In this document: positions 1,161 through 59,809 of the stretch, piece after piece | How the letters are laid out: every line of letters starts with the position of its first letter | Numbering within the stretch: the first letter of the stretch is position 1 | Origin: an uncultured Atopobium sp. | GTDB taxonomy: Bacteria; Actinomycetota; Coriobacteriia; Coriobacteriales; Atopobiaceae | DNA length: 64,000 nt | Direction: 5' to 3' | Assembly (NCBI GenBank): GCA_938036925.1 | Contig: CALHVU010000052.1 | Location: 893 to 64,892 of the forward strand | Notes under the pieces: generated by a model | The model's database searches: none | Seen by the model: only the letters and a program-made list of their open reading frames with translations | What the model was told of the DNA's origin: nothing | Made by a program: the position numbers and the translations under genes

Positions 1161-1196
1161 GGCGAGAAACCCTTTGAATAGAAGGGGTTTCTCGCC
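1161..1196. terminator. Bidirectional hairpin built from an inverted pair of the GGCGAGAAACCC word
   Basis: GGCGAGAAACCC at 1161-1172 and GGGTTTCTCGCC at 1185-1196 give a 12-13 bp stem. A/T runs flank both sides. It sits between convergent gene ends. Confidence 0.7.
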
Positions 1197-1225
1197 AAAC
1201 TTGGGTGATTATTTGAGTTGAAGCC

Positions 1226-1366
1226 TTAATGAACCATCGCAATAAGAAGAGCTCCGACCATAAGACCAATGGATGTTCTGAGAGCCGCTGAGGCTTGCCT
1301 GTGCAAGAGCTTTTGCGCGCGGGTTGCGTGCGTGAGCTGGGCTTCTGAAGTGTTGAGTGTACGCAT
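1226..1366 (-). CDS. Small ORF (46 aa), tail-anchored membrane peptide, last gene of the metal ABC operon
   Basis: Absent from the ORF track (<60 aa). ATG at 1366 has GAAAGGAGG 4 nt upstream and lies 13 nt after the permease stop. Peptide: MRTLNTSEAQLTHATRAQKLLHRQASAALRTSIGLMVGALLIAMVH. The hairpin at 1161-1196 follows it. Confidence 0.5.
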   Translation of the reverse strand: MRTLNTSEAQLTHATRAQKLLHRQASAALRTSIGLMVGALLIAMVH

Positions 1367-1379
1367 TGGTCCTCCTTTC

Positions 1380-2216
1380 TTAGTTCTTGTCTAGTATATG
1401 CATAAAAGTAAGCTTTGGTAAACTCTTTAGTATAAAAATGATACAAAAAACCACGCCGAGGGTGAGTCCAATCATTCCTCCAGAAGAGGCATCTAAGTAA
1501 TAACTGCCTGTTATTCCAATCAAAACGCTAATCGTGGCAATAAGCGGAGAAATCCAGAGCATATGCCGCATCTGATTGGTAAGAAGCCTTGCGCAGGCAC
1601 CCGGAACAATAAGCAGCGAGACTGACAAAATGACGCCAACTGCCTGGAGCGATATGACAATTGCGAGGGCTAGGGCAACAAGCAAGAATGAAGTGAGTGT
1701 TTTAGTAGAAAGACCGATTGCTTGAACCTGCGTTGGATCAAATGAAAGCAAGGTCAGGTCCTTGTTTTTAAGGATGAGCAGGATTGCAATGGGAAGGCCA
1801 ATACAAAGAACTTGCAGCATGTCGGGAGTAGTGACCCCCAAAAGGTTTCCAAAGAGTATGTGTGAGAGGTTAATTTGGCTTGGAACCTTGGATATGAGAA
1901 CTGTTCCTAGTGCAAAAAACGTTGTAAATACAATGCCGATAGCAGTATCGGGGCGCACAATTTGGCTCTTTTTGACTTGTCCGACCAACACCACGGTAAT
2001 GAGAGCAAATACCAGTGCTCCTACCAGATAGGGAAGCCCCAGCAGGTGAGCAATGACCACGCCCGGGAGAATAGAATGCGAGATGGCGTCGCCCATAAGC
2101 GACCAACCCATATGCGTAATCCAGCAGCTTAAAAGTCCGCAGACTATGGCGGTTGCAATTCCGGTGATGAGGGCTCGCTGCATGAATGCGTATTGGAGAA
2201 TGTCTACCTCAGGCAT
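1380..2216 (-). CDS. Metal (Mn/Zn/Fe) ABC transporter permease, ABC-3 (TroC/MntB/ZnuB) family
   Basis: Polytopic membrane protein starting MPEVDILQYAFMQRALITG. ATG at 2216 overlaps the ATPase stop by 8 nt. Operon context with an ATPase and a cluster-9 binding protein. Confidence 0.85.
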   Translation of the reverse strand: MPEVDILQYAFMQRALITGIATAIVCGLLSCWITHMGWSLMGDAISHSILPGVVIAHLLGLPYLVGALVFALITVVLVGQVKKSQIVRPDTAIGIVFTTFFALGTVLISKVPSQINLSHILFGNLLGVTTPDMLQVLCIGLPIAILLILKNKDLTLLSFDPTQVQAIGLSTKTLTSFLLVALALAIVISLQAVGVILSVSLLIVPGACARLLTNQMRHMLWISPLIATISVLIGITGSYYLDASSGGMIGLTLGVVFCIIFILKSLPKLTFMHILDKN

Positions 2217-7897: not shown

Positions 7898-9934
7898 ATG
7901 GAGCAGCTTGCACACGTTTTTTCACTTATCGTTCAGCCCGCATACGACTTGACCGGCAGTTGGTGGGCGGCAATCTTCCTTTTTACTCTTGCGACTAAAA
8001 TCATCCTGATGCCCCTGGCACTTTGGACGCAACAAAATTCTATTGTTATGGTGCGCCTTATGCCCGAGACCTTCCGCTTAAAGACTCGCTACTTCGGCGA
8101 CAGGGAGACCATCGAGGAGCGCTCCAACGAGCTCAACAAAAAGGCAGGCTATCACCCGCTATTGAGTCTTATTCCTCTGGCAATCCAGGTAGTCATCCTG
8201 TTCGGCCTAGTTGACGTTATCCATGGCATCACCGATTCTGGTGCGCCTGGCACAGAGTTTTTGGGCATGACCCCAATCATCGATGGCGGTATCACCTGGA
8301 TTATGCCACTGGCAGCAGCTTTGTCCTCGGTTGCTCTTGGTCTTGCTTCCAACAAGCTGAATCCGCTTCAGCGCGAGCAGTCTCGTGCAGAGAAGAACAC
8401 CACAAACGGCCTTTCTATTGCAATGTCGCTGGTACTTGCAGTCTACGTTGTCTGTGGCATGGCATTCTATTGGGTTTGCTCAAACCTTCTCTCAATCCTG
8501 GTCCAAATTGTCTGCAACATCATCATCGACCCTCGTAAGCAGGTTGATTACGACGATCTCAATGCTGCTCGCGACGAGTTTGAGGCAATGGACGCAGCAA
8601 CTAAATCCACTCACAAGTGGTTCCAGCGCGATCCTCATGCCGCTCGCGAAAAAGAGGACTACAAGCGCTTCTTTGACACCATCGGCAAGCACCTGGTCTT
8701 TTACTCCGAATCAAGCGGTTTCTACAAGTACTTCCAGGGCGCCATCGAGTGGCTGCTGGCAAACTCTGACATTCGTATCCACTATGTCACCTCTGACCCT
8801 AACGACCAGGTCTTTGAACTGGCAAAACAGCAGCCTCGCCTGATTCCGTATTACTTGGGTCAGCGTCGCCTTATCACGCTTTTCATGAAGCTCGACGCTG
8901 ATGTTGTGGTAACTTCCCTCGGCGACCTGGAGAGCTCCTACATGAAGCGCTCCTATGTGCGCAAAGACGCTGAATACATGTATATGTGCCACCATATGAC
9001 CTCCATGACGGTCACCTCAACGCGCAACGAGTACACCTACTACGACGACGTCCTCTGCGTTGGCCCTCACCAGCAGCACGATCTTGAGCTGGTCGAGAAG
9101 TACTACGGTACGCCATCCAAGAGAAAGCCTGCTATTGGCTACGATCTTCTCGATAGGTCAATCAAAAACTACCAGAAGCAGAATCTGGGCCAGCGCAAAC
9201 CTGGCGAGAAACCCCTGTTGCTGATTGGTCCTTCGTGGCAGTATGACAACTTGATGGACAGCTGCCTTGACGGCCTGCTTGAGCAGCTCATGGGCCGCGG
9301 CTGGCGCATTGTGGTCCGCCCACACCCAGAGTATTTGAAGCGCTATCCTGCCCGCATGGAGGAGATTCTTGCTCGCTACGCTGAAGCGGACCCAGAGGAG
9401 CTCTCCTTTGAGACTGACTTCAGCTCCAACACTTCGGTTCTCTCGGCTGACCTGCTCTTTACTGACTGGTCGAGTGTTGCTGAGGAGTTCTCGTTTACCA
9501 CGCTCAAGCCGTCGGTCTTCATTGATACCGCGATGAAGGAGAACAACCCCGACTGGAGCAAGATTCATTCGGATCCATGTGACATTACGCTCAGAAACGA
9601 GATTGGCCGCAGCTTTGATCCTAAGGACCTCTCGGGCCTGGGCGACGCGGTTGCGCAGATGCTTGAGGAGACCGATAGCTGGTCGCACAAGATTGAAGAG
9701 ATTCGTAACAATATGATCTTCAACCTCGGCCACGGCGGAGAAGCCGCAGGTAAGTTCATTCTTGAGCGCGTTTTGGCGCACCAGGAGGGAACCGCGGACG
9801 CTGACGTCGAGAAGACCGACGACGCAGCAACCGAGGTTGACGCCGACGCAGCAACCGACGAAGCAGCAACCGAGGTTGACGCCGACGCCGCAAGCAACGG
9901 CAACGCCGAGAAGGACAGTGATCTCCGTGCGTAA
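7898..9934 (+). CDS. Fusion protein: YidC/Oxa1-like membrane domain plus TagF-like CDP-glycerol glycerophosphotransferase domain
   Basis: The N-terminal ~220 aa resemble the YidC core (AAIFLFTLATKIILMPLALWTQQNS..., 5 TM). The C-terminal part carries TagF-type motifs (LLIGPSWQYDN, VVRPHPEY, LFTDWSSVAEEFSF..KPSVF). Acidic repeat tail. Confidence 0.65.
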   Translation: MEQLAHVFSLIVQPAYDLTGSWWAAIFLFTLATKIILMPLALWTQQNSIVMVRLMPETFRLKTRYFGDRETIEERSNELNKKAGYHPLLSLIPLAIQVVILFGLVDVIHGITDSGAPGTEFLGMTPIIDGGITWIMPLAAALSSVALGLASNKLNPLQREQSRAEKNTTNGLSIAMSLVLAVYVVCGMAFYWVCSNLLSILVQIVCNIIIDPRKQVDYDDLNAARDEFEAMDAATKSTHKWFQRDPHAAREKEDYKRFFDTIGKHLVFYSESSGFYKYFQGAIEWLLANSDIRIHYVTSDPNDQVFELAKQQPRLIPYYLGQRRLITLFMKLDADVVVTSLGDLESSYMKRSYVRKDAEYMYMCHHMTSMTVTSTRNEYTYYDDVLCVGPHQQHDLELVEKYYGTPSKRKPAIGYDLLDRSIKNYQKQNLGQRKPGEKPLLLIGPSWQYDNLMDSCLDGLLEQLMGRGWRIVVRPHPEYLKRYPARMEEILARYAEADPEELSFETDFSSNTSVLSADLLFTDWSSVAEEFSFTTLKPSVFIDTAMKENNPDWSKIHSDPCDITLRNEIGRSFDPKDLSGLGDAVAQMLEETDSWSHKIEEIRNNMIFNLGHGGEAAGKFILERVLAHQEGTADADVEKTDDAATEVDADAATDEAATEVDADAASNGNAEKDSDLRA

Positions 9935-12083
9935 AACGGTCGCTTCATCTGTGAAAGCACCAGTCAGTGCCGCCGTCCACAAGACGCGTGTACTCTTTGT
10001 GCATGCTGCGTTGTATGTTGTAGCACTGACGTTGGTCTGGTGGGCACTGCTGCCAGCAATTGCTCAGGCGTATGTTGACCCGTCAGTTATGACCTACACC
10101 ATCCAGGCACTGGCAGCAGTCGTAGTTGCACTCTCTGCGGTGCTTGGCGTTGCGTTTAGGCGCTCTCGTAAGGTGCTCTTCCGTCTGCTTAAGATTGATG
10201 AGAACGCCAATAAGATTGTCGAAGGCAAAGTTCACAAGGTTGACGCCAAAGGTGCTGAAGCTGCAAATACTCAGATGAAAGAAATCCTTGCAGCAGAAGC
10301 CATTCGTCTCAAAGAACAAAAAGAGGGAACCCTCAAACCTAAGGGTCGTATTGGTGTCGCATTTCTTGTCTCTTTCTTTACTGTCTTTACTATCTTGGTC
10401 GTAGCCCCACTTGAGCTGGTGGCAAGCAATGCGCGAGACCTTTCTTTCAACCTCAACGATGTTGCAGGTCCCGTTATTATTGCAGGTCTTATCCTTACGA
10501 TCATTCTTACAGTGCTTCTATCACTCCTGCGTAAGCGTGTGTTCAACGTTGCCGTTGCATTTGTAGGCGCCGTCGGTGTGGCGTCATACGTTCAGGCAGT
10601 ATTCTTGAACGGTGGTATGCCACTTGCAGATGGTCATGAGGTTATTTGGTCAGACTTCACAACCCAAATGATTGTCTCTGGCCTCATTTGGCTAGCAATC
10701 ATTGCAGCTGCAGTGACCTTCTCGCTCCTAAAAGCACGTCAGCTCCGAACGGGCCTTTTGGTAACCGCAACCGCGCTTATCATTGTCCAGACTGTTGGTG
10801 TTGCAAGTCTGTGGGGACCTGCAATAGCAGCGTCGATAGATGCTCACGCCGAGCACCAGCAGGTTGTTGCAACGCGCGAGGGCCTCTACAACGTTTCCTC
10901 CAAGAAGAACGTCGTGGTGTTTGTTCTAGATACCACTGATACCGCTTTTGTCCAGAAGCTTTACGATGAGCATCCAGAGACATTTGCGCCTCTTACTGGC
11001 TTTACGTGGTATAGAAATTCCGTCGGCTCCATGATTCCTACGCGTTATGGTGTTCCATCGCTGCTTTTTGGCTCCCGTCCTCAGCCTGGCGAGAATTTCA
11101 ACGATTTTGTCTACAACTGGGCACAAAGTGATCAGTACCTCAAGGATATTCAGAATGCTGGATATCAGGCAGGTTTGTATACGGACCAGTTGAACTACTC
11201 TCACTACAGAGACACTGCGCAGAAGTATTCTATCAACTACCACGAGCCTCGTGGTCGTGGTATAGATAACCAGCTAGACGTGCTAGGTGCGCTGCGCATT
11301 CTCTACAAGACGGCATTCTGTAGGGACATGCCTTGGGTATTTAAGCCTCGATTCTGGTATTACACCGAGGACCTCAATATGCGTATGCGCAGACCAGTCA
11401 ACATGGACGAGGTTGATCTTTCTTCTCAGCCTTACACCGAGGATGACCTCAAGTATTACCAGGAACTTCAACACTACGGTCTCTCGATTGATGACAGTGC
11501 TGGTCAGAAAGGATCGTTCCGCTTTATCCACCTTTTTGGTTCACACCCACCTTATACGCTTGATCGTAACGTTGAGCCTACCAGCGATCCAAGCAAGCAA
11601 AACGTTGATGAGCAAACCATCGCGGCTTACAGAATTGTTGCGCAGTATATCGCTGAACTTAAGCGTCTTGGTGTGTATGAAAACACGTCTTTTATTATTA
11701 CCGCAGATCACGGTGACTGGTATTTGACTAATAACGATATCCAGCAGCCTTCCGCTCCAGTCATTATGTACAAACCTGCTGGTCAGACTGCTGAAGAGGC
11801 GGCTCAGCCTATGCAGATTTCTGACGCGCCTGTCTGGCACTACGATATTCTGGCGCAGACACTCAAGGATATGGGCGTTGACCAGCAGACGCTTTCTAAC
11901 TACACCACACCGCTTGATGAGTCTTATGAGGGTGAGACGCGTCCTCGTTACTACATTGAGACCATTTCAAACGGCAAGCAAGACATCTTTGTCAGGGAGT
12001 TTGTCATTAACGGTGACGCCAACGACATGAAGAATTGGAGCCTCACGGGCAACGAATGGCCTGTTGAACCATGGCATGACTAA
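9927..12083 (+). CDS. LTA-synthase/sulfatase-like (alkaline phosphatase superfamily) polytopic membrane protein
   Basis: Multi-TM N-domain followed by an extracellular domain with VFVLDTTD, HLFGSHPPY and IITADHGD motifs. Start uncertain (GTG at 9918 or 9927, overlapping the upstream stop). Confidence 0.7.
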   Translation: MRKTVASSVKAPVSAAVHKTRVLFVHAALYVVALTLVWWALLPAIAQAYVDPSVMTYTIQALAAVVVALSAVLGVAFRRSRKVLFRLLKIDENANKIVEGKVHKVDAKGAEAANTQMKEILAAEAIRLKEQKEGTLKPKGRIGVAFLVSFFTVFTILVVAPLELVASNARDLSFNLNDVAGPVIIAGLILTIILTVLLSLLRKRVFNVAVAFVGAVGVASYVQAVFLNGGMPLADGHEVIWSDFTTQMIVSGLIWLAIIAAAVTFSLLKARQLRTGLLVTATALIIVQTVGVASLWGPAIAASIDAHAEHQQVVATREGLYNVSSKKNVVVFVLDTTDTAFVQKLYDEHPETFAPLTGFTWYRNSVGSMIPTRYGVPSLLFGSRPQPGENFNDFVYNWAQSDQYLKDIQNAGYQAGLYTDQLNYSHYRDTAQKYSINYHEPRGRGIDNQLDVLGALRILYKTAFCRDMPWVFKPRFWYYTEDLNMRMRRPVNMDEVDLSSQPYTEDDLKYYQELQHYGLSIDDSAGQKGSFRFIHLFGSHPPYTLDRNVEPTSDPSKQNVDEQTIAAYRIVAQYIAELKRLGVYENTSFIITADHGDWYLTNNDIQQPSAPVIMYKPAGQTAEEAAQPMQISDAPVWHYDILAQTLKDMGVDQQTLSNYTTPLDESYEGETRPRYYIETISNGKQDIFVREFVINGDANDMKNWSLTGNEWPVEPWHD

Positions 12084-14432: not shown

Positions 14433-14807
14433 ATTACTCAGGCATACTATGCAATACACAGTATGAAAAAATATAGTATGAACTTGCCATCTTTGTAGGT
14501 GTTGTAATATTTCTATAGCGCTATGTGTGTGAAAATAGTATGTATGAAAGACGGTCCGGTGGCGGACAAAGGAGACATGAGTTGAACTTCCGTGAAGACG
14601 ATGCCGATACACAGAACAACACCGACGTGCAAAAAAAGCAATGGACTCGCTTGATCACGATTTGCTGACAGGCGAGACGCTGGACGTTGGAGATAAAGTT
14701 ACGCGTCGGCTCTCACAGGAGCAAGCCACCCTGCCTCATCCCGCTGCAAAATCGTCAGGCCCCATACAGAGCAAGCAAGAAATCACAGCAGAAGCGGTTA
14801 AGAAAAT

Positions 14808-14851
14808 GAACTGCCTCCCATTTCTTATGTCCAAGAAATGGGAGGCAGTTC
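14808..14851. repeat. REP-like perfect palindrome, copy 1
   Basis: GAACTGCCTCCCATTTCTT-ATGTCC-AAGAAATGGGAGGCAGTTC (19-bp arms), downstream of the minus-strand gene that ends at 14927. Confidence 0.9.
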
Positions 14852-14926
14852 AACACGACGCGGCTTTTTTGGTGACTAGTTATAGGAGCGGCTCTGTGAA
14901 GAGAGCTTGCCTGCGACCTGGGATTA

Positions 14927-18182: not shown

Positions 18183-18214
18183 GGTGAGAAGAACGTTTGG
18201 CGAGAAGAACGTTT
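18183..18214 (+). repeat. 16-bp tandem duplication containing a variant of the abundant word
   Basis: GGTGAGAAGAACGTTT and GGCGAGAAGAACGTTT are adjacent. An exact inverted GGGTTTCTCGCC follows at 18259-18270. Confidence 0.8.
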
Positions 18215-18312
18215 GGCTTAAACTACGTCCAAAACTCTATGTCTATCTGGGACTCCACGGGTTTCTCGCCCGCGGAGTTTCTTGTGAAAAGTTCCTTAAG
18301 ATTGTTGTATGA

Positions 18313-40992: not shown

Positions 40993-41036
40993 GAACTGCT
41001 TTCTATTTCTCGTGTCCAAGAAATGGGAGGCAGTTC
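40993..41036. repeat. REP-like palindrome, copy 3 (degenerate left arm)
   Basis: GAACTGCTTTCTATTTCT-CGTGTCC-AAGAAATGGGAGGCAGTTC, directly abutting element B. Confidence 0.8.
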
Positions 41037-41912: not shown

Positions 41913-41979
41913 GACGTGCTCCTTCGAATCTCAATCGACAACTCTAGTTAATCACGGCCGCCACCTTGAGGCAACCCTG

Positions 41980-42001
41980 GCGAGAAGACCGGTCTTCTCG
42001 C
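41980..42001. terminator. Perfect 22-nt palindrome made of the word variant, downstream of xthA
   Basis: GCGAGAAGACC|GGTCTTCTCGC. No clear T-run. Confidence 0.5.
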
Positions 42002-46165: not shown

Positions 46166-46323
46166 AAGAATTATCTGCACAAAATGTGAATTTCTCGCCA
46201 AGTACTTCTAGCAACAGAAGGGTTGTTCTGCTATACTTTTTCAGCTTATTGTCTTGTTGAGCACGTGCTCATAAAGACACCCCTGCTCTGGTCGGAAACC
46301 AGGGCCGATGTAAGGAGTCCTGC

Positions 46324-46737
46324 ATGAAGCAAGGTATTCATCCAGAGTACGTAGAGTGCACCGTTCGTTGCACCTGCGGAAACACCTGGACCACACACGC
46401 AACTGTTCCAGAGATGCGTCTTGACCTCTGCGACAAGTGCCACCCATTCTATACGGGTCAGCAGAAGCTTGTCGACACTGGTGGACGTGTCCAGCGCTTC
46501 GCCGATAAGTTCGGTGGCGCAGCAAACGCTGCTCTCGAGGCTGCTAAGGCTGCCAAGGAGGCAAAGGCTGCTAAGGCTGCTGAGCAGGAGGCTGCTCGTA
46601 AGGCTGCTGCTGAGGCTAAGGCTGCTGAGAAGGCAAAGCGTGCTGCTGAGTTCGCAAAGAACGCACCAGCTGCAGAGCCAGAGGCTGAGGCTGAGGCCGA
46701 GGCCGAGGCACCTGCAACCGAAGAGGCTGCAGAGTAG
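46324..46737 (+). CDS. rpmE: 50S ribosomal protein L31 with a ~70-aa Ala/Lys/Glu-rich C-terminal extension
   Basis: MKQGIHPEY...CTCG...[26 protein letters not shown] core, then [34 protein letters not shown]...[10 protein letters not shown]. Confidence 0.9.
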
Positions 46738-46802: not shown

Positions 46803-46869
46803 TTTGGCGAGAAACCCTCTCAACTCAGAGGGTATACTTGAAAGTGAAAAATCTGCCGTCGGAGGACGA

Positions 46870-49215
46870 ATGGAATCACTGTATACAAAGTATCGCCCGC
46901 AAACGTTTGAGCAGGTAGTTGGCCAGAAGCATGTGGTCGGCACTCTTGAGCGAGCGGTCTTGGAGCAAAAGCTCAGCCACGCATACCTGTTCTGCGGACC
47001 TCGCGGCACAGGTAAGACCACTATGGCTCGCTTGCTGGCAAAAGCTATCCTTTGTCACGAGGCGCCTGGTCATCTGCCCGACGGCACTTGCGAGGACTGC
47101 CAGTTGATTGCTGCCGGTCAGCATCCAGATGTCTTTGAGATTGACGCCGCTTCTAACACCGGCGTTGATAACGTGCGAGAAGAGATTATTTCTCGCGCTA
47201 GCTACGCTCCTGTGCGCGGCAAAGGCAAGGTTTACATCATCGACGAGGTGCACATGCTTACCTCGGCGGCATTTAATGCCCTGCTCAAAACGTTGGAGGA
47301 GCCTCCTTCGCACGTGACGTTTATCATGTGCACCACCGATCCTCAAAAAATTCTTGCAACTATTCTGTCCCGCGTGCAGCGTTTTGACTTCCGCTCCATT
47401 GCCGCTGATGAGATGGCAGAGCACCTGGTCAACGTCTGCAAAAACGAGGGCTTTACCTACGAAGACGCAGCTATTGATCTTATTGTTCGTCATGCGCGCG
47501 GTGGCATGCGTGACGCTCTGTCTTCTCTTGAGCAGCTCTCCGTTTACGGCGGCGGTGTCATTTCTGAGCAGACGGTTCGTGACGTTTTGGGTCAGTCGTC
47601 CGGCTCTCTTATCAACAACGCTGCAATGGCCCTGGCTCAGCGAGACATTTCTTCACTCTTTACCACGGTAAATACGCTGTTTGAAGGCGGCAAAGATCTG
47701 CTGCAGTTTACGCGTGAGCTTGCCGTTCACGTAAGAGATCTCTACATTGCCGCAGCTGTGGGTGTTGATTCTCCTGCGCTGGCAAATTCTACCGCTTCGA
47801 CCGAGCAGCTTACCAAGGAAGCCCAGGCATTTGGCTCGGTTGATCGACTCTCCAGAGTTCTGACCGTTTTGGGCGACGCGGCCAATCAGATGCGTACCGC
47901 CGTTAACCAGCGATTGGTCCTGGAGGTTGCATTCACCAAGCTGGCGCGCCCCAACACGGAGCTTTCATTGGAAGCGCTGGCAGATAGGGTAGCTGTTCTT
48001 GAGCAGCAGTTGGCAAACGGTGTTGCTGTTGCTCCAGTTGGCGAGAAACCCGCAGCTCCCGCGCCTGTTTCGGCTCCGGCGCCGCAGCCAGCTCCTGTTG
48101 CCGTGCCCGCACCTGCGACGGTTCCAGCGCCGCAGCCTGCACCAGCGCCGCAGCCTGCACCAGCTTCACAACCGGCACCTGCACCACAGCCAGCGCCAGC
48201 TCCGCAGCCTGCACCAGCACCCGCAGCTGCGCCAGCTCCGCGACCAGCGCCTGCGCCACAACCTGCGCCTACGCCTGCTCCAAAGGAAGTTGACCAGGCA
48301 GACGCACTTCTCGTCAGACAGTGGAAAGAAGTCGGCAAGGTTTGTGCCTCAAAAAATGCTGCTCATGCAGCACTGCTGGTCAGCTCAACGCTCGAATCGG
48401 ATGACGGCTCTGAGTTGGTAGTTACACTGCCCAAGGGCTCCTCGTTTGCAATGAGGATGCTCAGCGCGCCGGCAGTTTCCGAGTTTGTAAAAGAGTGCGT
48501 TGCTCAGGTTATGGGCCCGCGCCGCATCAAATATGTTGAGTCGAGCCTTGCTGCAACGGCAATCTCTCGAGAGAAGCGTGCAGCTCAGGTGCCGGCTCCA
48601 GCTCCTGCACCTGCAATTCCAGTGGCCCCTGCTGCGCCCGTCACACCAGCTCTTGAGCCAGTTGCGCAGCCCGCTCCTGCCTCTGTTCCCGCTCAGGCAC
48701 CTGCGCCAACATCAGAACCTGCAGCCCCTGTAGCTCCAGCACCTGCAGCTCCCGTTGTACCAGCGCCAGAGGCGTCATATCCGATGCCTTGGGATGAGCC
48801 TGCGTCTGGCGGAGCTTCCGTTGAGACTCCTGACTACGATCAGGTACCTTACAGCGATGACGATGTAGCTGCGGTTTTTGACGATTCCGTTGAAGATGTC
48901 GCTTCAGCTCCAGTCGTGCCTACGCCTGCACCAGCGGCTCCAGTTGCACCCGCACCAGCACCTGCACCTGCAGCGCCTGAACCCGCAGCACCCGCGCCGG
49001 CGCCTGCACCTGCAGCGCCTGAACCCGAACCAGTTCCGGCTCCAAAGCCTGCTCCAGTACCAGCTTCACCAGAGGACATCGCTGCTCGTTCTGCGCTTCC
49101 TCCAGAGCTCAACAGCGTGGCAGACATGCTTGAAAAGGTATTTGGACCAGCGGTTTCTTTGTCGGTAGAGAAGAAGCTGGATGCCGAAACTCCCGTAGAC
49201 CCTGCAAACAACTAG
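46870..49215 (+). CDS. dnaX: DNA polymerase III subunit gamma/tau
   Basis: LYTKYRPQTFEQVVGQ, GPRGTGKTT, IIDEVHML, Zn module CxxC. GGAGGA RBS before the ATG at 46870. Long Pro/Ala-rich repeats in the C-terminal half. Confidence 0.9.
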   Translation: MESLYTKYRPQTFEQVVGQKHVVGTLERAVLEQKLSHAYLFCGPRGTGKTTMARLLAKAILCHEAPGHLPDGTCEDCQLIAAGQHPDVFEIDAASNTGVDNVREEIISRASYAPVRGKGKVYIIDEVHMLTSAAFNALLKTLEEPPSHVTFIMCTTDPQKILATILSRVQRFDFRSIAADEMAEHLVNVCKNEGFTYEDAAIDLIVRHARGGMRDALSSLEQLSVYGGGVISEQTVRDVLGQSSGSLINNAAMALAQRDISSLFTTVNTLFEGGKDLLQFTRELAVHVRDLYIAAAVGVDSPALANSTASTEQLTKEAQAFGSVDRLSRVLTVLGDAANQMRTAVNQRLVLEVAFTKLARPNTELSLEALADRVAVLEQQLANGVAVAPVGEKPAAPAPVSAPAPQPAPVAVPAPATVPAPQPAPAPQPAPASQPAPAPQPAPAPQPAPAPAAAPAPRPAPAPQPAPTPAPKEVDQADALLVRQWKEVGKVCASKNAAHAALLVSSTLESDDGSELVVTLPKGSSFAMRMLSAPAVSEFVKECVAQVMGPRRIKYVESSLAATAISREKRAAQVPAPAPAPAIPVAPAAPVTPALEPVAQPAPASVPAQAPAPTSEPAAPVAPAPAAPVVPAPEASYPMPWDEPASGGASVETPDYDQVPYSDDDVAAVFDDSVEDVASAPVVPTPAPAAPVAPAPAPAPAAPEPAAPAPAPAPAAPEPEPVPAPKPAPVPASPEDIAARSALPPELNSVADMLEKVFGPAVSLSVEKKLDAETPVDPANN

Positions 49216-50277: not shown

Positions 50278-50949
50278 ATGGCAAACCACATGAGAACAAG
50301 TTCATCTGGCGAGAAGACCCCTGAGGCTTCATCGGTTGACATGAAGAATATTTCAACGCTTCGTGCTGGTCAGGGCGCACAAATTCCTCAGAGCCCACGA
50401 CAGGCCGATAACACGCCAGAACCTCCAAATAGAAAATCGGTCATCATCTTGGTGGTCGCAGCTATTGTTGCGCTTACTGCTCTGTTCTTTATTGTGCGCT
50501 GCGCTACAAGCACAAAAAGTGAATCTGCAAGCCAGCAACCAAAACAGACTCAGTCCGCCTATGCCGACGAGAAGCAGCAGGATGAGCAGGCAGTTGACGG
50601 CTCAGTTACCTTCCACGGCATGAAGTACTCCCTGGAGAAGCAAAGCGACGGCAAAACTGCTGTTGTCCGTACGAGTGACTCGGGAACTAAGAGCGTTCTG
50701 TTTGAGGTTGAGGGAACTCCTACCAGCCTGATTCTTTTTAACGACACCATTTTGGTTCCAGAGAATCGCGATTCTGGTTGGGATGTTGTGGCATGTGCTC
50801 TGGTAGACGGCTCGCTTCCAACCCTTATTGCCGATAAGGACGGCAAGGCTGTTGGTGGAAACGGAACTATCACTGCAGCTACGCTTGACGGAACTACACT
50901 TAAGGTAACCGATTCCACAGGAAACACCACCAGCGTTGCTCTTCAGTAA
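50278..50949 (+). CDS. Hypothetical membrane-anchored protein
   Basis: Disordered N-terminus, one TM span (VIILVVAAIVALTALFFIV), beta-rich exterior part. Starts 3 nt after recR. Confidence 0.6.
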   Translation: MANHMRTSSSGEKTPEASSVDMKNISTLRAGQGAQIPQSPRQADNTPEPPNRKSVIILVVAAIVALTALFFIVRCATSTKSESASQQPKQTQSAYADEKQQDEQAVDGSVTFHGMKYSLEKQSDGKTAVVRTSDSGTKSVLFEVEGTPTSLILFNDTILVPENRDSGWDVVACALVDGSLPTLIADKDGKAVGGNGTITAATLDGTTLKVTDSTGNTTSVALQ

Positions 50950-51113
50950 AAGCAACGCGAAGAAATTGTGGATTTCCAGTGGGCGTTCATGTTTCTGAGC
51001 TGCGGATATTCTCGCCAAGTGGTTATTTTCAAGAAAATTTTCAAATTCGTTGGAAATAACGCTAGACAAGAATAAAAGTTCCCTGTATTATTTCAATTCG
51101 CAACAAGGCGTCC

Positions 51114-51190
<77 letters not shown>

Positions 51191-52909: not shown

Positions 52910-53863
52910 ATGAGTGGCGAAGTGGAACCCGCATCAGAACTCACGCCAGAGCTGCGCGAGTTTGTCGAGTTCGTAGCCAAGAAAGGTCGCGAGTTGTATC
53001 GCGATTTGCCTTGGCGTCGCACGTATGACCCGTATGCTATCTGGATTTCTGAGGTTATGCTTCAGCAGACGCAGGTCAGCCGCGTAGATGGCCGCTGGCA
53101 GAGGTGGCTGGAGCGCTTCCCAACGGTTGATGCGCTGGCTGCCACCGCGCCTTCGGACGTGCTTGAAGAATGGCAGGGCCTGGGCTACAACCGTCGTGCT
53201 TTGTCCGTGCATCGAGCTGCTCAGGCAATTTCTGAAGCAGGCGGAGTCTTTCCACAAGATCAAAAGGAGCTGGTAAAGCTTCCAGGTATTGGTCCCGCAA
53301 CTGCTGCGGGTATTCGTGCGTTTGCGTTTAATCTGCACGGCGTCTACCTGGAGACTAACGTGCGCACGGTCTTTCTGCACGAGTTGTATCCCCAGGCAGA
53401 AGGCGTGCCAGACTCCGAGCTTGTCCCGCTGGTAGAGCTCACGTGCCCTGCGAGTGTTGAGGACGCCGTGGACGCAGTCGCAGCGGGCGCTGATGCCGCT
53501 GTGAACACCGCAGCGGAGACCGACGAGACGAAGCTCACGCCACGTAGCTGGTACTACGCCCTTCTCGACTATGGCGCGTACCTGAAAAAAACCATTCCCA
53601 ACCCTTCACGAAGGTCCAAAAGCCACGTCAAGCAGTCGCGCTTTGAGGGATCTCATCGACAGAAGCGAGCTGAGCTCTTGCGCGTCCTTCTCGCCCATAA
53701 AGACGAAGGCGGAGCGGAGTTTGAGACGCTTCACCAGGAACTCTGCCAGATTGAGGTCAATGCGGGGCGAGAAACCCTTGATGAGCAGGTTACCCTTGGC
53801 TTACTTGAAGAACTTGCGAAGGAAGGCTTTTGTCAGAAAAATGATGAATACTGGTTGCCCTAA
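52910..53863 (+). CDS. HhH-GPD base-excision glycosylase, MutY/EndoIII-related, no Cys4 Fe-S loop seen
   Basis: LPWRRTYDPYAIWISEVMLQQTQV, WQGLGYNRRA, LPGIGPATAAG. LETNV sits where MutY has xDGNV. No C-x6-C-x2-C-x5-C motif. Confidence 0.7.
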   Translation: MSGEVEPASELTPELREFVEFVAKKGRELYRDLPWRRTYDPYAIWISEVMLQQTQVSRVDGRWQRWLERFPTVDALAATAPSDVLEEWQGLGYNRRALSVHRAAQAISEAGGVFPQDQKELVKLPGIGPATAAGIRAFAFNLHGVYLETNVRTVFLHELYPQAEGVPDSELVPLVELTCPASVEDAVDAVAAGADAAVNTAAETDETKLTPRSWYYALLDYGAYLKKTIPNPSRRSKSHVKQSRFEGSHRQKRAELLRVLLAHKDEGGAEFETLHQELCQIEVNAGRETLDEQVTLGLLEELAKEGFCQKNDEYWLP

Positions 53864-54707: not shown

Positions 54708-54727
54708 GGCGAGACGGGTTTCTCGCC
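54708..54727. repeat. Short hairpin formed by the abundant word and a partial inverted copy
   Basis: GGCGAGA-CGGGTT-TCTCGCC. The exact GGGTTTCTCGCC is at 54716-54727. Confidence 0.8.
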
Positions 54728-54858: not shown

Positions 54859-55152
54859 ACTTTTCAGGCAGACTTTAAAGCGCGTCCGAGTTTGCCCTTC
54901 CATGGAGCCTGATTTTCTCGCCATGTCTGAGTAATTTGCCGGAAAAGTTCACCAAGTCTGAGCTATTTGCCGGTTTTTCTCGTTATGTCTGAGTAAATGT
55001 ACTCAGACTTCATGCACTTTTCAGGCACGCAATTTCAAGCCTCACTGATAGAGCTCACGCATCACCGCAGAAACCATGTGTTATCTGCGCCAAGTCGAGC
55101 TAGATCCGCAAAACCGTATATACTCGAATGAAGCGTTATCTGGCGAGAAGCC

Positions 55153-55303
55153 CCGTGTGCTCGGAACCCTCGTGGACCCGTCGCTCGACACGGACCCGCC
55201 GCTCGTCAAGAACCCGCCGCTCGTAACGGACCCGCTGCTCGTCACGAACCCGCTGCTCGTCACGGACCCGCCGTCCCTCGTGGACCCGGCGCGCGCCGCG
55301 GGC
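55153..55303. repeat. 18-bp tandem array (about 7-8 units) upstream of the antiporter
   Basis: CCGTCGCTCGACACGGAC / CCGCCGCTCGTCAAGAAC / CCGCCGCTCGTAACGGAC / CCGCTGCTCGTCACGAAC / CCGCTGCTCGTCACGGAC / CCGCCGTCCCTCGTGGAC / CCGGCGCGCGCCGCGGGC. Preceded by GGCGAGAAGCCC at 55142. Confidence 0.85.
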
Positions 55304-55341: not shown

Positions 55342-57642
55342 TTGGAGACATTCGAATTTGTGCTCATTGTTCTGACCTGCGTCGCGGCTTCCTCGGTTAT
55401 CGACAAGTTTGTCAACGTCTCCATCCCCGTTATCCAGGTTGTTATCGGTCTGCTTGTTGCGCTCGTGCTGCCCAACGTCCAGGAGGTTCACCTGGAATCC
55501 GAGCTCTTTATGCTGCTCTTTATTGCCCCACTCCTGTTCAACGAGACGAGAGAAACCAACATTCGTGCACTTCTTCTCAATCTGAACAGTATTTTGTCGC
55601 TGGTGATTGCTCTGGTAGTTGTCAGCGTGCTTTCGGTCGGCTATGCCCTCCACCTCATGGTCCCCTCAATTCCTCTAGCTGCGGCGTTTGCGCTGGCCTC
55701 GGCCCTGGGACCAACCGATGCAGCCACCGTCACCGCGCTTAAATCCAACATCCACCTGACCCATCGCCAGCAAACGCTTCTCTCGGGAGAGTCCTTGATT
55801 AACGACGCATCCGGCGTCGTTGCATTCCAGTTCTCCGTAGCTGCGGCTGTGACGGGTGCGTTCTCGCTGGTAGACGCAGCGGGATCTTTCACAGTGCTTT
55901 TTGTGGGCGGCGTGGCAATGGGAATTGTCACTGGCTTTGCCTTCTCTGCCATCAACGCAATGCTTGGTAGGTTGGGTTACGAGGACACCGTTGCAAACGT
56001 CCTCTATGAAGTACTGACACCGTTTCTTGTCTATCTTCTTGCCGAAACCTTCCACGTTTCTGGCGTACTTGCTGTTGTAGCAGCCGGCTTGGTGATTGCG
56101 CTCCCACGAAGGCAGAGCAATAATGCGCTATTTGCAAGGCAAAAATTGGTCTCAGATTCCACGTGGAAAGTCATCAGCTTCCTCATCAACGGCACCATCT
56201 TTGTCTTCCTAGGAATGCAGCTCCCCCTTGCCGTGCTTCCTGGCACCAACGGCGGCCTCAATATCCTGCAGATTCTAGGAATTGTTGTCGTGATTACCCT
56301 GTTCATGCACGGTGTCCGCTTCGCATGGCTCTACGCGCTGGAAACTTACAAGCTCCACAAGGGCGGTCATCTCTGCACCGGAAAAGACGCCGTCGACGGC
56401 GAGAATGACCTCGCAGGTAGCAGCCCCGACGGCGAGAAACCCGACCAGCCGCTCGCTGAACTGGGCTCGGAGCAAACCTCGGAGCAGATCGCTGAGCAGC
56501 CCAAACCCACGTGCGCCATAAAGCCCATCTCAATCACGTCGGCCGAGGTCATCAAGAACGTGCTGGTTACCACTGTTGCAGGTGCAAAAGGTGCGGTAAC
56601 GTTATCGATTATCCTCACCTTGCCTCTCACAACACAGTCCGGAGCAGCGTTTCCGCAGAGGGATCTGCTGATTACCATCGCCGCCGGCGTTATTCTCGCC
56701 ACGTTGCTTTTAGCGGACAATCTGTTACCCGTGCTATCAAAGTCCCCTGAAGCAGACTCTGACCTGCCCGAACGTCTCCATGAGGGAGAGATTGCCGTCT
56801 TGGAAGCAACGCTTGCGGAGCTCAGGAGATTGCTGCAGTCGGAAAACTCCAAAGCAAAGTATCTACCTGCGCTTTGTTTGACTATCACGCGCTATACCAA
56901 CCGCTTGTTTGCCTCTCGCATCACTGTCCCTGGCTCGGGAGAACTTGTCAAAAAGCTGGTCCTTCACGAGACAGAAGTCCAGCAGAAATGCCTCGAGGAG
57001 CTACGTGAGCGCCATATTAAAACGCACAACCCCATTCCGTGGGATCAAATTGTCGATGACATTACTTCAATCCGCAGGTCAGTAGGCTATTACGGACCTA
57101 TTGCAAATATTGCTGCAACAACAAACCACCGCTCGCGTATTACCGTTGCTCTTCACGAGCTTAAGCTGGCAGCGCAACGCATCATCGACGGCGAAATCAG
57201 GCACCTTGAAGACGCAGACCAGTCCTACTACCAGGCGTGTTTATACGCGCTTGAGATGGAATACGCGGAGCTTGATGACCTGGAACGCATCGCTAACGGT
57301 GACGATGAGGAGTTGGCGGTCATCGCATCTAATCTGATGATCGACCACGAGTCAGCAATTGAGTCCATCTGGGGCCGCATCAATATCAATGATGAGCATG
57401 ACTCCAGCACCACCCAAGTCTCCTACCTGCTGCCTTACAACCTGAGCTCACACAAGATGTCGCCTCACTTTAGGCAGCAGATTGCGGACGCTCGAAAATA
57501 CGCCGACGACGTGGCAGAAAACGCCCTGCGCATTGAGTTGGACCAGATTTCGCGCCTGCAGTTTGAGGGTGTCATCGACCGCGAGGTTGCCTCTCACCTG
57601 CGCGAGAACGTCTACTACCTGCAAATGACGTTGAGTGAGTAG
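55342..57642 (+). CDS. CPA1-family Na+/H+ (cation/proton) antiporter with a long cytoplasmic C-terminal domain
   Basis: METFEFVLIVLTCVAASSVIDKFV... N-terminus typical of the YjcE/NhaP2 type, about 12 TM, then a soluble domain of about 330 aa. TTG start with an AGGAAGGAAG RBS. Confidence 0.8.
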   Translation: METFEFVLIVLTCVAASSVIDKFVNVSIPVIQVVIGLLVALVLPNVQEVHLESELFMLLFIAPLLFNETRETNIRALLLNLNSILSLVIALVVVSVLSVGYALHLMVPSIPLAAAFALASALGPTDAATVTALKSNIHLTHRQQTLLSGESLINDASGVVAFQFSVAAAVTGAFSLVDAAGSFTVLFVGGVAMGIVTGFAFSAINAMLGRLGYEDTVANVLYEVLTPFLVYLLAETFHVSGVLAVVAAGLVIALPRRQSNNALFARQKLVSDSTWKVISFLINGTIFVFLGMQLPLAVLPGTNGGLNILQILGIVVVITLFMHGVRFAWLYALETYKLHKGGHLCTGKDAVDGENDLAGSSPDGEKPDQPLAELGSEQTSEQIAEQPKPTCAIKPISITSAEVIKNVLVTTVAGAKGAVTLSIILTLPLTTQSGAAFPQRDLLITIAAGVILATLLLADNLLPVLSKSPEADSDLPERLHEGEIAVLEATLAELRRLLQSENSKAKYLPALCLTITRYTNRLFASRITVPGSGELVKKLVLHETEVQQKCLEELRERHIKTHNPIPWDQIVDDITSIRRSVGYYGPIANIAATTNHRSRITVALHELKLAAQRIIDGEIRHLEDADQSYYQACLYALEMEYAELDDLERIANGDDEELAVIASNLMIDHESAIESIWGRININDEHDSSTTQVSYLLPYNLSSHKMSPHFRQQIADARKYADDVAENALRIELDQISRLQFEGVIDREVASHLRENVYYLQMTLSE

Positions 57643-57643
57643 C

Positions 57644-58408
57644 ATGAGCGCTACACCAGATACGCACCACGCCGCCGATGCGGCTACACATCCCATCGCC
57701 GATGCAGCTACACACCCCGCCAACCCCATGGCGAGAAAAACAATCATCTCCGGACTTTTCATCCACACGCAGATGTCCTCTGTAGCAGGAGCTCCTATTG
57801 TCTACCTCTTGGGTGACGTGGCCGACAACTCCCCCATTCAGGTACCTGAGGGCGTCAGCCTAGTGAACATTGGAGTTGACCTGTGGGAAGAGAACTTCTC
57901 GCCCTGGTGCGCCCCGCGCGTTTTTGCCAAGGGTCCCAACTTTGGCGACGGCGCCCAGAAAACGCTCGATACCCTTATCAACCAGGTCATCCCCTGGGCG
58001 GAGTCGGAGCTTACCGATCCGCCGGCATATAGGGTGTTTGTGGGATACTCGCTTGCTGGCCTGTTCAGCCTCTGGGCCGGCTTATCACAGGCTTGCATCA
58101 CGCCTATCCCAACCTTCCAGCGCATTGGAGCTGTCTCCGGATCGTTTTGGTTCCCAGGGCTTTTGGACTACGTAGATCAGCAGCTCAGAGGAGGGGCGGT
58201 CAGCCTCACACACGCTTATCTTTCTTTGGGCGACCGAGAAGCACGAACCCCCAATCCACAAATAATGCACGTGCGAGAAAACGCAGAGCTTCTCGCCAGC
58301 AGGTTTGAGAGTGCAGGATTAACCTCAATGTTTGAGCTGAACCGTGGGAATCACTTCCAAAACGTTGAAGGCAGAATGCAGAAAGCTCTGGACTGGCTGG
58401 TCAAATAG
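57644..58408 (+). CDS. Alpha/beta-hydrolase esterase (putative-esterase / IroE-like family)
   Basis: GYSLAG nucleophile elbow and a later LSLGDRE...H pattern. Start uncertain (ATG 57644 or 57728). A 21-bp tandem duplication lies in the 5' region. Confidence 0.7.
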   Translation: MSATPDTHHAADAATHPIADAATHPANPMARKTIISGLFIHTQMSSVAGAPIVYLLGDVADNSPIQVPEGVSLVNIGVDLWEENFSPWCAPRVFAKGPNFGDGAQKTLDTLINQVIPWAESELTDPPAYRVFVGYSLAGLFSLWAGLSQACITPIPTFQRIGAVSGSFWFPGLLDYVDQQLRGGAVSLTHAYLSLGDREARTPNPQIMHVRENAELLASRFESAGLTSMFELNRGNHFQNVEGRMQKALDWLVK

Positions 58409-58447
58409 GGTAAGATTCTTCAGAACACACGTGTCCAGAGAGGTTTT

Positions 58448-59809
58448 ATGCCCAATCCAAAGCAATTTGACAGCAAAACTGAATCACCCGGTACAGCCTC
58501 CGGCAAGCAGTCTGACTACTTATTTGCGCTCATTCTTTCCCTGGTATTTGGCATTTTTGGTATTCCGCAGTTTTATCTTAAAGGCTGGAAATCGGGACTT
58601 ACCAGGCTTGCCATAAACGCAGCGCTGATTGTCGGCGCATTTGCCCTGGCACAAACTCTTACCTCGCCGTCGATGCTTTCTTACCTCCTACCAGCAATTT
58701 TTTCGCTTCCGGTTATCGAGAGTGCTCTGAACCTTATCTATGAGGATGCCAGTGCTCCCAAAAAGCTCCTAAAAGGCAAGCTCAAACCACATAAACGATA
58801 CGCCGGAAAGCAGAAAGCTGGAATCGCGCTCGCCACGCTGACGGTAGCGCTCTACTTTAGCGCAGCGCTCACGCAGCCGCTTCCAACCACCCTATCACCT
58901 GTGGGATCCTTGGGCCAACAAACCGCAGTTCAAGCGCCTGGCGGGTCCTCCCAATCAGACTCCAGCGTGCCGTCTGCTACCGCACAGGCCAGTACAAACG
59001 TCACTATCAAGTTCATCGACGTAGGCCAAGGAGAGGCTATTCTCATTGCACTTCCCGAGAAAACCATGCTCATCGACGCAGGCCCCACAGGATCTGCTCC
59101 AAAAATTGCCCAAGTGCTCCAAGAACTTGGCCGAAACAAGATTGATTACCTGGTAGCCACCCATCCCGACGAAGATCACATCGGTGGTATGGCGGACGTC
59201 ATTTCCAACACCCAAATTGGGACCATTTACGCACCAAATAAGACAAACAACACGGCAACATACAGAAAGTTTCTGACCGCTATCCAGAACAATAACCTGC
59301 AGATAACCCTTGCCGAAGCAGGCACTATCATCGACCAAACCGACAGTTACAAGCTAGAAATTCTCTGGCCCAAAAAAGACGCAAATTTCCCCGAAACCAA
59401 CGATTACTCGATAATCATTAAGCTGACCGTTGGCAACAAAACGTTCCTCTTCACAGGAGACGCGCCCACAAATGCCATCCTGAACTCCAATCCAGGTCAC
59501 ATTGACGTGCTCAAACTCTCCCATCACGGCTCTCGAACAGGCACTACCGAGGTGCTGATTCACAAGCTCTCGCCCACCTACGCCGTCCTCTCGTACGCCG
59601 TGGACAACTCCTACGGCCACCCCATGCAGTCAGTCCTGAATGCCCTCCGCAAACATTCCGTTGAGGTCTGGGGCACGGGTGCCAATGGAACCATTACTAT
59701 TACCTGCGATGGTACAAACATTGATATATCTGGCGAGAAACCCGGCACGGTTGTAGCTCCAACCTCACAAGATAAATCTGGCACGTCGTCAAAATCGAGG
59801 ACCAAGTAA
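58448..59809 (+). CDS. TM2-domain plus ComEC-type metallo-beta-lactamase-fold protein
   Basis: N-terminal TM2-like segment (YLFALILSLVFGIFGIPQFYLKGW). C-terminal MBL domain (IKFIDVGQGEAILI, LVATHPDEDHIGG, LKLSHHGS). Confidence 0.8.
   Translation: MPNPKQFDSKTESPGTASGKQSDYLFALILSLVFGIFGIPQFYLKGWKSGLTRLAINAALIVGAFALAQTLTSPSMLSYLLPAIFSLPVIESALNLIYEDASAPKKLLKGKLKPHKRYAGKQKAGIALATLTVALYFSAALTQPLPTTLSPVGSLGQQTAVQAPGGSSQSDSSVPSATAQASTNVTIKFIDVGQGEAILIALPEKTMLIDAGPTGSAPKIAQVLQELGRNKIDYLVATHPDEDHIGGMADVISNTQIGTIYAPNKTNNTATYRKFLTAIQNNNLQITLAEAGTIIDQTDSYKLEILWPKKDANFPETNDYSIIIKLTVGNKTFLFTGDAPTNAILNSNPGHIDVLKLSHHGSRTGTTEVLIHKLSPTYAVLSYAVDNSYGHPMQSVLNALRKHSVEVWGTGANGTITITCDGTNIDISGEKPGTVVAPTSQDKSGTSSKSRTK

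Follow-up and report, generated by a model that had tools for sequence, protein, structure and literature searches.

A hyper-abundant gapped DNA word in Atopobium with features resembling DNA uptake signals

The 64,000-nucleotide stretch of an uncultured Atopobium sp. analysed here (GenBank assembly GCA_938036925.1, contig CALHVU010000052.1, positions 893 to 64,892; hereafter the window) carries, among others, genes for a YidC-domain protein, a P-type ATPase, a CobW/COG0523 protein, an asparaginase, DnaX and a Na/H exchanger (gene calls were checked against Pfam and NCBIfam), and it is studded with a short word that is the subject of this report. The word had been noticed as the 12-mer GGCGAGAAACCC, and we found all ten exact copies at the positions and on the strands given in the original prediction, with none in 100 dinucleotide shuffles. 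The count of 16 copies of its 11-mer core also held (0.02 expected), and an unbiased k-mer scan returned this core as the top over-represented word among the 9- to 12-mers of the window. Some details required correction: the core listed at 24481 starts at 24482, with 24481 being the start of AGCGAGAAACCC; the copies at 41979 and 50308 (GGCGAGAAGACC), listed as one-mismatch variants, have two mismatches each; and the copy at 15053 lies on the minus strand.

The 12-mer represents only part of a wider, gapped motif, (T)GGCGAGAA-NNN-C, or GGCGAGAANNNC, and is its most frequent full form; the motif occurs 42 times in the window against 0.63 expected from shuffles. This corresponds to about one copy per 1.5 kb, on both strands and also within genes. 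All 42 octamers are followed by C at position 12, and GGCGAGAANNN followed by any base other than C was absent (1.8 expected). When 279 composition-matched permutations of the octamer were given the same gapped C, they averaged 0.6 copies in the window. Position −1 is T in 69% of the window copies, position 9 is A or G, and positions 10-11 are free; ACC is the most frequent tail (12 of 42 copies). Positions 9-11 show a lineage preference, for ACC in the window genome and for G-N-N in relatives. In a pooled set that is partly redundant (loci L095 and L098 are orthologues of window regions) and was not used for statistics, single-mismatch variants of the inner core CGAGAA numbered 0-4 against 47 consensus copies; variants of C12 were also nearly absent, and G1, G2 and T−1 were looser. 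The observations given here and below show a lineage-specific double-stranded-DNA recognition word, with a near-invariant inner core and C12, found roughly every 1-1.5 kb in Atopobium/Lancefieldella and in certain other Atopobiaceae, within genes in either orientation and between them. Full-text literature searches returned nothing relevant on the word, its octamer or uptake sequences in Atopobium, and the motif is undescribed within the limits of the literature searched. A metagenome scan with the 14-mer TGGCGAGAAACCCG gave 120 loci, nearly all of them chance matches in unrelated environmental contigs; the only Atopobium-like loci among them were L095 and L098.

Approximately three quarters of the motif copies lie in open reading frames (ORFs). 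Among the 17 in-ORF copies with at most one mismatch to the 12-mer, 13 are read as x-E-K-P (frame 0) and 3 as R-E-T, the frames that had been named originally. The encoded peptides are enriched in the window proteins, with GEKP found 7 times against 0.2 expected, GEK 15 times against 3.4 and EKP 11 times against 2.4 (4-5-fold for the last two). Codon tests led us to reject a peptide-level explanation based on a G-E-K-P motif: CCC encodes Pro in 10 of 11 EKP, though it makes up 17% of Pro codons, and GCGAGAAACCC, present 10 times in the gene sequences, fell to 0.2 after synonymous-codon shuffling. These tests support selection at the nucleotide level, as the original prediction had proposed.

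We also considered that the word might have no nucleotide-level meaning, being either part of a longer mobile repeat or the outcome of a common G-E-K peptide combined with codon usage. Sense frame 0 does use the commonest Gly and Glu codons, and GGC-GAG-AAG-NNC consists of preferred codons in high-GC relatives. The chance that this accounts for the word is close to negligible. The flanks of the copies are unrelated to each other, so the copies are not all parts of one longer mobile repeat; there are no indels relative to orthologues, intergenic copies exist, and the word uses the rare codons CCC and CGA. The synonymous shuffles argue against it both for the core (0.2 against 10) and for the antisense octamer (1.4 against 12).

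Orientation was compared with expectations from an independent-codon model, with synonymous-codon shuffles as a second control. The octamer GGCGAGAA occurs 19 times in sense (2.0 expected from the codon model, 6.0 in the shuffles) and 12 times in antisense (1.4 expected from either), the core being enriched about nine-fold in each orientation relative to genes. All antisense copies in the window have C at position 12. The strict sense orientation claimed for the word was thus borne out for copies that have the ACC tail and for those with at most one mismatch to the 12-mer (all 17 of the latter that lie in ORFs are sense), but not for the core. Because the core is equally enriched in sense and antisense, the word acts on DNA and not on RNA. 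A sense-strand RNA or non-template-strand signal, whether read by an RNA-binding factor (an alternative raised by the original prediction), an ops-like site for a NusG paralogue or a small-RNA target, would account for the 17 of 17 sense copies, for the co-orientation of most intergenic copies with the neighbouring gene and for the strong skew of frame use to G-E-K-P. We regard it as very unlikely, given the antisense enrichment of GGCGAGAA..C with its invariant C12, the 8 sense and 7 antisense copies in a related Atopobiaceae locus (L155), the antisense copy at 18259 (−) between two plus-strand genes and the lack of Rfam matches at motif sites.

Sense copies of GGCGAGAAACCC itself encode G-E-K-P in the genes for the YidC-domain protein (9203-9214, +), the DnaX linker (48040-48051, +), the Na/H exchanger (56431-56442, +) and a metallo-β-lactamase (MBL)-fold protein (59732-59743, +), and G-R-E-T-L in an HhH-GPD glycosylase gene (53766-53777, +). 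Variants are read as R-E-K-P in an ABC ATPase gene (CGCGAGAAACCC, 2902-2913, −; kept in relatives), as R-E-T and D-E-K-P in the CobW/COG0523 gene (AGCGAGAAACCC, 24481-24492, +; GACGAGAAACCC, 24498-24509, +), as S-E-K-P in the asparaginase gene (AGCGAGAAACCC, 34969-34980, −) and as G-E-K-P at 44623-44634 (GGCGAGAAGCCC, +). The xth gene contains CGCGAGAAACCC on the minus strand overlapping CGCGAGAAAACC on the plus strand (42553-42572); the minus-strand copy is sense and reads S-R-E-T-P on the conserved ExoIII K-E-T-P site. Further sense copies lie in the genes for the P-type ATPase (GGCGAGAAGGAC, 19425-19436, +), an ABC-F protein (GGCGAGAAGGTC, 30927-30938, +), an EamA transporter (GGCGAGAAACTC, 33898-33909, −) and the Na/H exchanger (GGCGAGAATGAC, 56398-56409, +), on the ABC signature LSGGEKRR (GGCGAGAAACGC, 31374-31385, +), and at 11088-11099 (GGCGAGAATTTC, +), 16352-16363 (GGCGAGAAAAAC, −), 38541-38552 (GGCGAGAAGTTC, +), 50308-50319 (GGCGAGAAGACC, +), 57730-57741 (GGCGAGAAAAAC, +) and 63688-63699 (GGCGAGAAGAAC, +). 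Antisense copies were found in the genes for a GDPD protein (GGCGAGAAAAAC, 17082-17093, −), the P-type ATPase (GGCGAGAAGGCC, 19893-19904, −), a methyltransferase (GGCGAGAAGTAC, 20844-20855, +), the asparaginase (GGCGAGAAAAGC, 35370-35381, +), the HhH-GPD glycosylase (GGCGAGAAGGAC, 53684-53695, −) and the Na/H exchanger (GGCGAGAATAAC, 56689-56700, −), and additionally at 28057-28068 (GGCGAGAATGAC, −), 37379-37390 (GGCGAGAAATTC, +), 43494-43505 (GGCGAGAAGGGC, −), 44902-44913 (GGCGAGAAGCTC, −), 57892-57903 (GGCGAGAAGTTC, −) and 58286-58297 (GGCGAGAAGCTC, −).

The chromosomal strands are used without real preference. The 42 copies of GGCGAGAANNNC split into 25 plus and 17 minus, the relaxed form CGAGAANNNC into 52 and 49, and the copies in two related loci into 11 and 8 (L141) and 9 and 10 (L155); both orientations are interleaved over a stretch in which cumulative GC skew keeps one sign. 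These splits bear on a polar chromosome signal of the Chi type or of the type of FtsK orienting polar sequences (KOPS) and SpoIIIE recognition sequences (SRS), whose reader would be a DNA translocase or a helicase-nuclease acting in recombination. Few octamers are more over-represented in their genomes than Chi and KOPS, GAGAA is common to SRS (GAGAAGGG) and the word, and the mild plus-strand excess would fit. Such a signal is nevertheless highly improbable here, as there is no real skew, the interleaved orientations argue against it indirectly and the gapped 12-bp layout is unlike any known Chi. The motif shares with Chi (RecBCD/AddAB) and KOPS/SRS (FtsK/SpoIIIE) that these are over-represented short words, read by proteins, tolerated in genes and specific to families. 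By contrast, those words are co-oriented with replication, much less enriched and contiguous 5-8-mers, whereas the window motif is unskewed and has a gapped 12-bp footprint.

Between genes, the word occurs both singly and in hairpins. The only exact inverted pair of GGCGAGAAACCC in the window (1161-1172, +, and 1185-1196, −) lies between convergent genes and forms a bidirectional terminator-like hairpin (−30.3 kcal/mol, z −7.4); its left arm is kept in 7 related species. A second terminator-like hairpin (−21.3 kcal/mol, z −3.1) holds the GGCGAGAAACCC copy at 18259-18270 (−), which lies between two plus-strand genes. There are also two overlapping palindromic variants, one in xth (42553/42561) and one in an intergenic hairpin, where GGCGAGAAGACC and GGTCTTCTCGC form a palindrome of two overlapping inverted copies (41979-42001). 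Other intergenic copies are at 18199-18210 (GGCGAGAAGAAC, +), after a Sir2 gene at 25637-25648 (GGCGAGAAATCC, +), at 25653-25664 and 25711-25722 (both CGCGAGAAACCC, +), 39592-39603 (GGCGAGAAAAAC, +), 46188-46199 (GGCGAGAAATTC, −) and 51005-51016 (GGCGAGAATATC, −), and upstream of dnaX, 15 nt before TATACT (GGCGAGAAACCC, 46806-46817, +). A copy of GGCGAGAAACCC at 54716-54727 (−) precedes a minus-strand gene or falls within a small ORF; GGCGAGAAAATC lies in the same intergenic or small-ORF region (54911-54922, −), and GGCGAGAAGCCC precedes the Na/H exchanger gene (55142-55153, +).

Inverted pairs at gene ends, on which the original prediction had drawn, proved to be a weak feature. Scanning 185,579 genomes, one per species, for inverted pairs returned 13 Atopobium/Lancefieldella metagenome-assembled genomes (MAGs) and a few unrelated hairpins. 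Exact pairs are rare, being confined to two orthologous loci in each Atopobium genome, and so are not typical of the word in general. Repetitive extragenic palindromic (REP) sequences and bacterial interspersed mosaic elements (BIME), Correia elements and other miniature repeats likewise occur many times per genome and form some hairpins at gene ends, but they are longer units with conserved flanks that are intergenic and spread by insertion, whereas copies of the window motif share only 9 bases, lie mostly in coding sequence and show no indels.

The second conserved inverted-pair hairpin of the word lies outside the window, in L003, L005, L007, L014, L017, L018 and L019. Its arms are separated by about 21 nt, and it adjoins a T-rich terminator (for example, L019 2708-2752), and in L019 it is located between two LPXTG/Cna_B/SpaA surface-protein genes. 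Palindromes of 20-22 bp in which two inverted copies overlap and share their tails, such as GGCGAGAAGATCTTCTCGCC, were seen at L141 2333-2356, L019 6962-6985 and window 41979-42001, and a GATC-tail form was present in several loci. Hairpins with 12-nt arms that are exactly GGCGAGAAACCC/GGGTTTCTCGCC were found in unrelated high-GC MAGs of Solirubrobacteraceae, Chloroflexi, an Actinomycetota bin and Thermoanaerobaculia (L009 2811-2845, L011 4331-4365, L012 6953-6987, L013 311-345 and L004 3533-3564). Some of these are extended by GGGGYGT...ACRCC, those in L009 and L013 are near-identical, and they may represent a separate repeated hairpin element.

The conservation of the word was compared with that of its surroundings. 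In relatives at 92-95% genome identity, the nine specified bases are 96-100% identical, exceeding both the background (92-95%) and third codon positions (83-90%), and the NNN positions are conserved no better than background. The specified positions of the word are thus better conserved than its flanks. Whole motifs were retained in, for example, 10 of 13, 9 of 10 and 10 of 10 cases, whereas masked control 12-mers gave an expectation of 0.56-0.69. The orthologue alignments show motif differences that are substitutions only, without indels, and several copies coincide with conserved peptides (ExoIII K-E-T-P, asparaginase E-K-P-I, ABC LSGGEKRR and RecR L-L-A), which argues that the word was written into sites that already nearly fitted it. 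At the conserved RecR peptide E-V-L-L-A, motif-bearing lineages use G-NNN-TTCTCGCC and others use different synonymous codons. These comparisons show that copies are made by point substitution at pre-adapted codons and then kept by a force acting on nucleotides.

An origin through point substitution only is also what would be expected of a by-product of biased repair or gene conversion, in which a methyltransferase, nicking enzyme or mismatch-repair activity converts near-cognates into the word, which then accumulates without a function of its own. The highly iterated palindrome HIP1 (GCGATCGC) of cyanobacteria shows that a word can be hyper-abundant inside genes, and it resembles the window motif in being an octamer-scale word that is found in and outside genes, was spread by substitution, has lineage variants and has a function that is still unsettled. 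The great scarcity of one-mismatch variants and the absence of GGCGAGAANNN without a following C are consistent with conversion of near-cognates, as are the lineage-specific preferences with a HIP1-like process. We nevertheless judge this explanation unlikely. HIP1 is a palindrome that overlaps known methylation sites, whereas GGCGAGAANNNC is asymmetric and, at 12 bp, unlike known methylation or very-short-patch repair sites. Additionally, an enrichment of about 65-fold is far above known repair-bias effects, and no candidate enzyme was seen in the window.

The density and form of the word vary between lineages, as seen in orthologous loci that we located through DnaX and RecR homologues. Positions 1-7 kb of the window share 92-96% identity with six of the pair-carrying MAGs and 83% with a seventh. 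Close relatives of the window (L141-L144 and L151-L153; GC 47-54%) have 0.65-1.1 copies per kb, nearly always with C12. Atopobium sp. oral taxon 199 and a relative (L145 and L154; GC 52-54%) have 8-12 copies per 20 kb, with G at position 9, the tails GAAC, GCAC or GCTC, and the ACC form almost absent. The Atopobiaceae MAG GCA_030525685.1 (L155; GC 69%) has 19 copies in 20.6 kb (8 sense, 7 antisense and 4 intergenic), again with G at position 9. We counted 7 copies in Olsenella sp. An285 (L157; GC 68%), 2 in Olegusella (L156; GC 64%), and 3 and 0 in two other lineages (L147 and L149; GC 62-66%). At three orthologous sites, within xth, within a 244-aa gene and upstream of dnaX, GCGAGAAACCC in the window clade corresponds to GCGAGAAGAAC in oral taxon 199, and the encoded amino acids change in step with the DNA word. 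The site at 44623 has GGCGAGAAACCC in L141/L143 and GGCGAGAAGAAC in oral taxon 199, which also has GGCGAGAAGAAC at the site upstream of dnaX (46806). Judging from these alignments, the GCGAGAAGAAC/GGCGAGAAGAAC form at orthologous sites of this sister lineage looks like a dialect.

We also observed that the word is depleted in low-GC DNA. Segments at 4-8 kb, 12-16 kb and 60-73 kb (the last with an extension from L152) contain 0.18 copies per kb, compared with 0.84 elsewhere (Poisson p about 0.002), and the density ratio of 0.21 is below the 0.65 of composition-matched controls. The low-GC DNA is probably younger, with its foreign origin judged from GC content only.

Our best reading of these data, which we put forward tentatively, is a DNA-uptake-signal-like self-recognition word that would be maintained by molecular drive. 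A surface DNA receptor of the transformation machinery would prefer fragments carrying the word; uptake and homologous recombination would then raise the copy number of the word in the resident DNA to a high level, and a shift in receptor preference would give rise to dialects in sister lineages. We favour this reading because the properties of the motif match those of the uptake sequences described in PMC2817400. Such sequences occur at about 1 copy per kb in both orientations, originate by mutation and recombination, show reading-frame bias with enrichment of the encoded peptides (tripeptides are approximately doubled) and occasional terminator pairs, and are absent from genes without homologues (PMC2817400). 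The density in the window is comparable to that of the uptake signal sequences (USS) and DNA uptake sequences (DUS) (PMC2817400, table 1), and DUS dialects are known in the Neisseriaceae (PMC7371117).

Like the USS of Pasteurellaceae (AAGTGCGGT / ACAAGCGGT) and the DUS of Neisseriaceae (GCCGTCTGAA and its dialects), the window motif is a short asymmetric word with about 1 copy per kb on both strands (0.65-1.1 per kb, with no strand skew). Its genic copies have a strong reading-frame bias and enriched encoded peptides, it arose by point mutation and not by transposition, and its inner core is much stricter than its outer positions. The motif also has lineage dialects at orthologous sites, forms some inverted pairs as terminator-like hairpins and is scarce in atypical DNA. 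These likenesses, together with the conservation of the specified bases, support in part the resemblance to DUS and USS suggested by the original prediction; strict sense orientation and inverted pairs, which it also cited, fail as general properties. From the observed structure, DNA-level action, conservation, substitution origin, dialect and low-GC depletion we infer a receptor, preferential uptake and the drive itself. We do not claim that the word is a member of the USS/DUS class, which preferential uptake would define.

Several points weigh against an uptake signal. To our knowledge, sequence-specific uptake is known only in the Gram-negative Neisseriaceae and Pasteurellaceae, and the host here is a Gram-positive member of the Actinomycetota (Coriobacteriia); the literature searched held no report of competence in Atopobium/Lancefieldella. 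The only competence-related similarity seen in the window is that of a membrane-associated MBL-fold protein of 453 aa (58448-60054), whose gene is followed by a DUF3006 gene. The match of this protein to ComEC/Rec2 is confined to the C-terminal nuclease-like domain (TIGR00361 positions 440-663) and, at 113.9 bits, falls short of the family cut-off of 190; the protein is not a ComEC. Unlike USS and DUS, the motif is gapped (8 + NNN + 1), its inverted pairs are rare and its spacing is not more even than random (coefficient of variation 1.04 against 0.96, in a 64-kb sample of low power). Moreover, the data are limited to the 64-kb window and roughly 150 kb of related loci.

A further point is that, again unlike USS and DUS, the full-consensus form is exclusively sense in genes. 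Copies with the ACC tail were found 11 times in sense, never in antisense and 6 times between genes, and differ in this from those with other tails (13 sense, 12 antisense and 7 intergenic; Fisher p = 0.006). The bias is more extreme than in known uptake sequences, of which 40-63% are on the coding strand (PMC2817400, table 2). Under the codon model, antisense ACC-tail copies should be only about 1.7-2.4 times scarcer, and two of the three antisense frames of this form would call for xGG or GGG codons, which are rare. The cause is not that mRNA avoids GGG, as the sense strands contain 410 GGG and 466 CCC. The sense bias of the ACC-tail form is therefore only partly explained. Most likely, G-E-K-P and R-E-T are tolerated in loops and G-F-L-A, V-S-R and G-F-S are not. 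On the uptake reading, GGCGAGAAACCC would be the full optimum, which in genes would fit only the sense frames (G-E-K-P and R-E-T), and the 12-mer would be sense-only in genes because coding constraints block the antisense orientation.

Another possible, if doubtful, explanation is an array of binding sites for an abundant sequence-specific chromosomal protein, with each site under selection and no link to transformation; such a protein could act, for example, in nucleoid organisation, segregation, repair or self-recognition in defence. The gapped 8+1 layout over about one helical turn and the sharp specificity are typical of a protein footprint. The independence of the word from orientation and strand, its random spacing, the conservation of the specified bases and the retention of the same core across lineages of 43% to 69% GC are all consistent with this view. 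However, the low-GC depletion and the dialect replacement follow naturally from drive and are harder to obtain by selection site by site, and we know of no nucleoid or segregation protein that needs more than 1000 highly specific genic sites at a cost to protein sequence. We hold it similarly doubtful, though worth considering, that the word is the address label of an unknown genome-wide system of the Atopobiaceae other than transformation. A protein whose specificity drifts between lineages could then read GGCGAGAA-NNN-C on the duplex for discrimination of resident from foreign DNA, chromosome organisation or repair, and the strict-sense 12-mer would reflect a second, transcription-linked reading of the word.

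If the word is indeed an uptake signal, natural competence and a DNA receptor with sequence specificity would be expected in a group without genetic tools, where adding the word to DNA would be a recipe for transformation. The word would also mark resident as opposed to imported DNA in metagenome bins, and comparing lineages that have it with related ones that lack it could identify the receptor. Otherwise, the word points to a so far unknown system of protein-DNA recognition that would have more than 1000 sites per genome, a total that was extrapolated from the window and related loci and not counted.

Other repeated or over-represented words were noticed in the related Atopobiaceae contigs. 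In L147, CACTCCCGACAC and CTTCCGACATCC were rejected as genome-wide dialects: both are local repeats within a tandem array of 52-bp period (15600-15860) that occupies one intergenic region upstream of an EndoIII-like gene of this 66%-GC contig. The L149 word GACGTACACTA was likewise rejected as a local tandem or inverted repeat in a single intergenic region, and ACCCCGA in L147 as a sense-frame D-P-D/E codon effect. Strong over-representation was observed in L155 for GAACCCAAAC and GGGTTAAAAC/GGGTTAGAAA (4-8 copies against 0.01-0.05 expected). In L149, two inverted pairs of [G/A]ACGTACACTA (16487-16605 and 17843-17960) flank a 351-aa gene without a Pfam match and look like paired operator sites.

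The window holds further features apart from the word. A look-up of the protein at its left end gave no match. At its right end, positions 60000-64000 together with L152 1-9300 form a block of 43-44% GC that is almost motif-free and encodes four paralogues of about 315 aa without a Pfam match and a helix-turn-helix regulator; this block was probably acquired as an island. DnaX has a hypervariable C-terminal linker (window 47900-49215), with more than 120 separate 90%-identity clusters whose N-terminal half is 98-100% identical (49% query coverage). Rfam identified a tRNA gene at 51114-51187 and an L31-Coriobacteria ribosomal-protein leader upstream of rpmE at 46285-46317. The long (137 aa) ribosomal protein L31 ORF contains three copies of CTAAGGCTGC, 27 and 45 nt apart (46544-46625), an arrangement suggestive of a short tandem repeat in the C-terminal extension of the protein; with the copies at 5368 and 16890, this word occurs 5 times in the window (0.22 expected). 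Finally, AAGAAATGGGAGG is present 5 times against 0.07 expected (14807-14852, 40584-40615 and 41018-41030), as two perfect inverted pairs with a 6-nt spacer and one solo copy. The pair at 14807-14852 appeared in a consensus scan as a terminator-like hairpin with a 20-bp stem, and AAGAAATGGGAGG looks like a small REP-like hairpin element.

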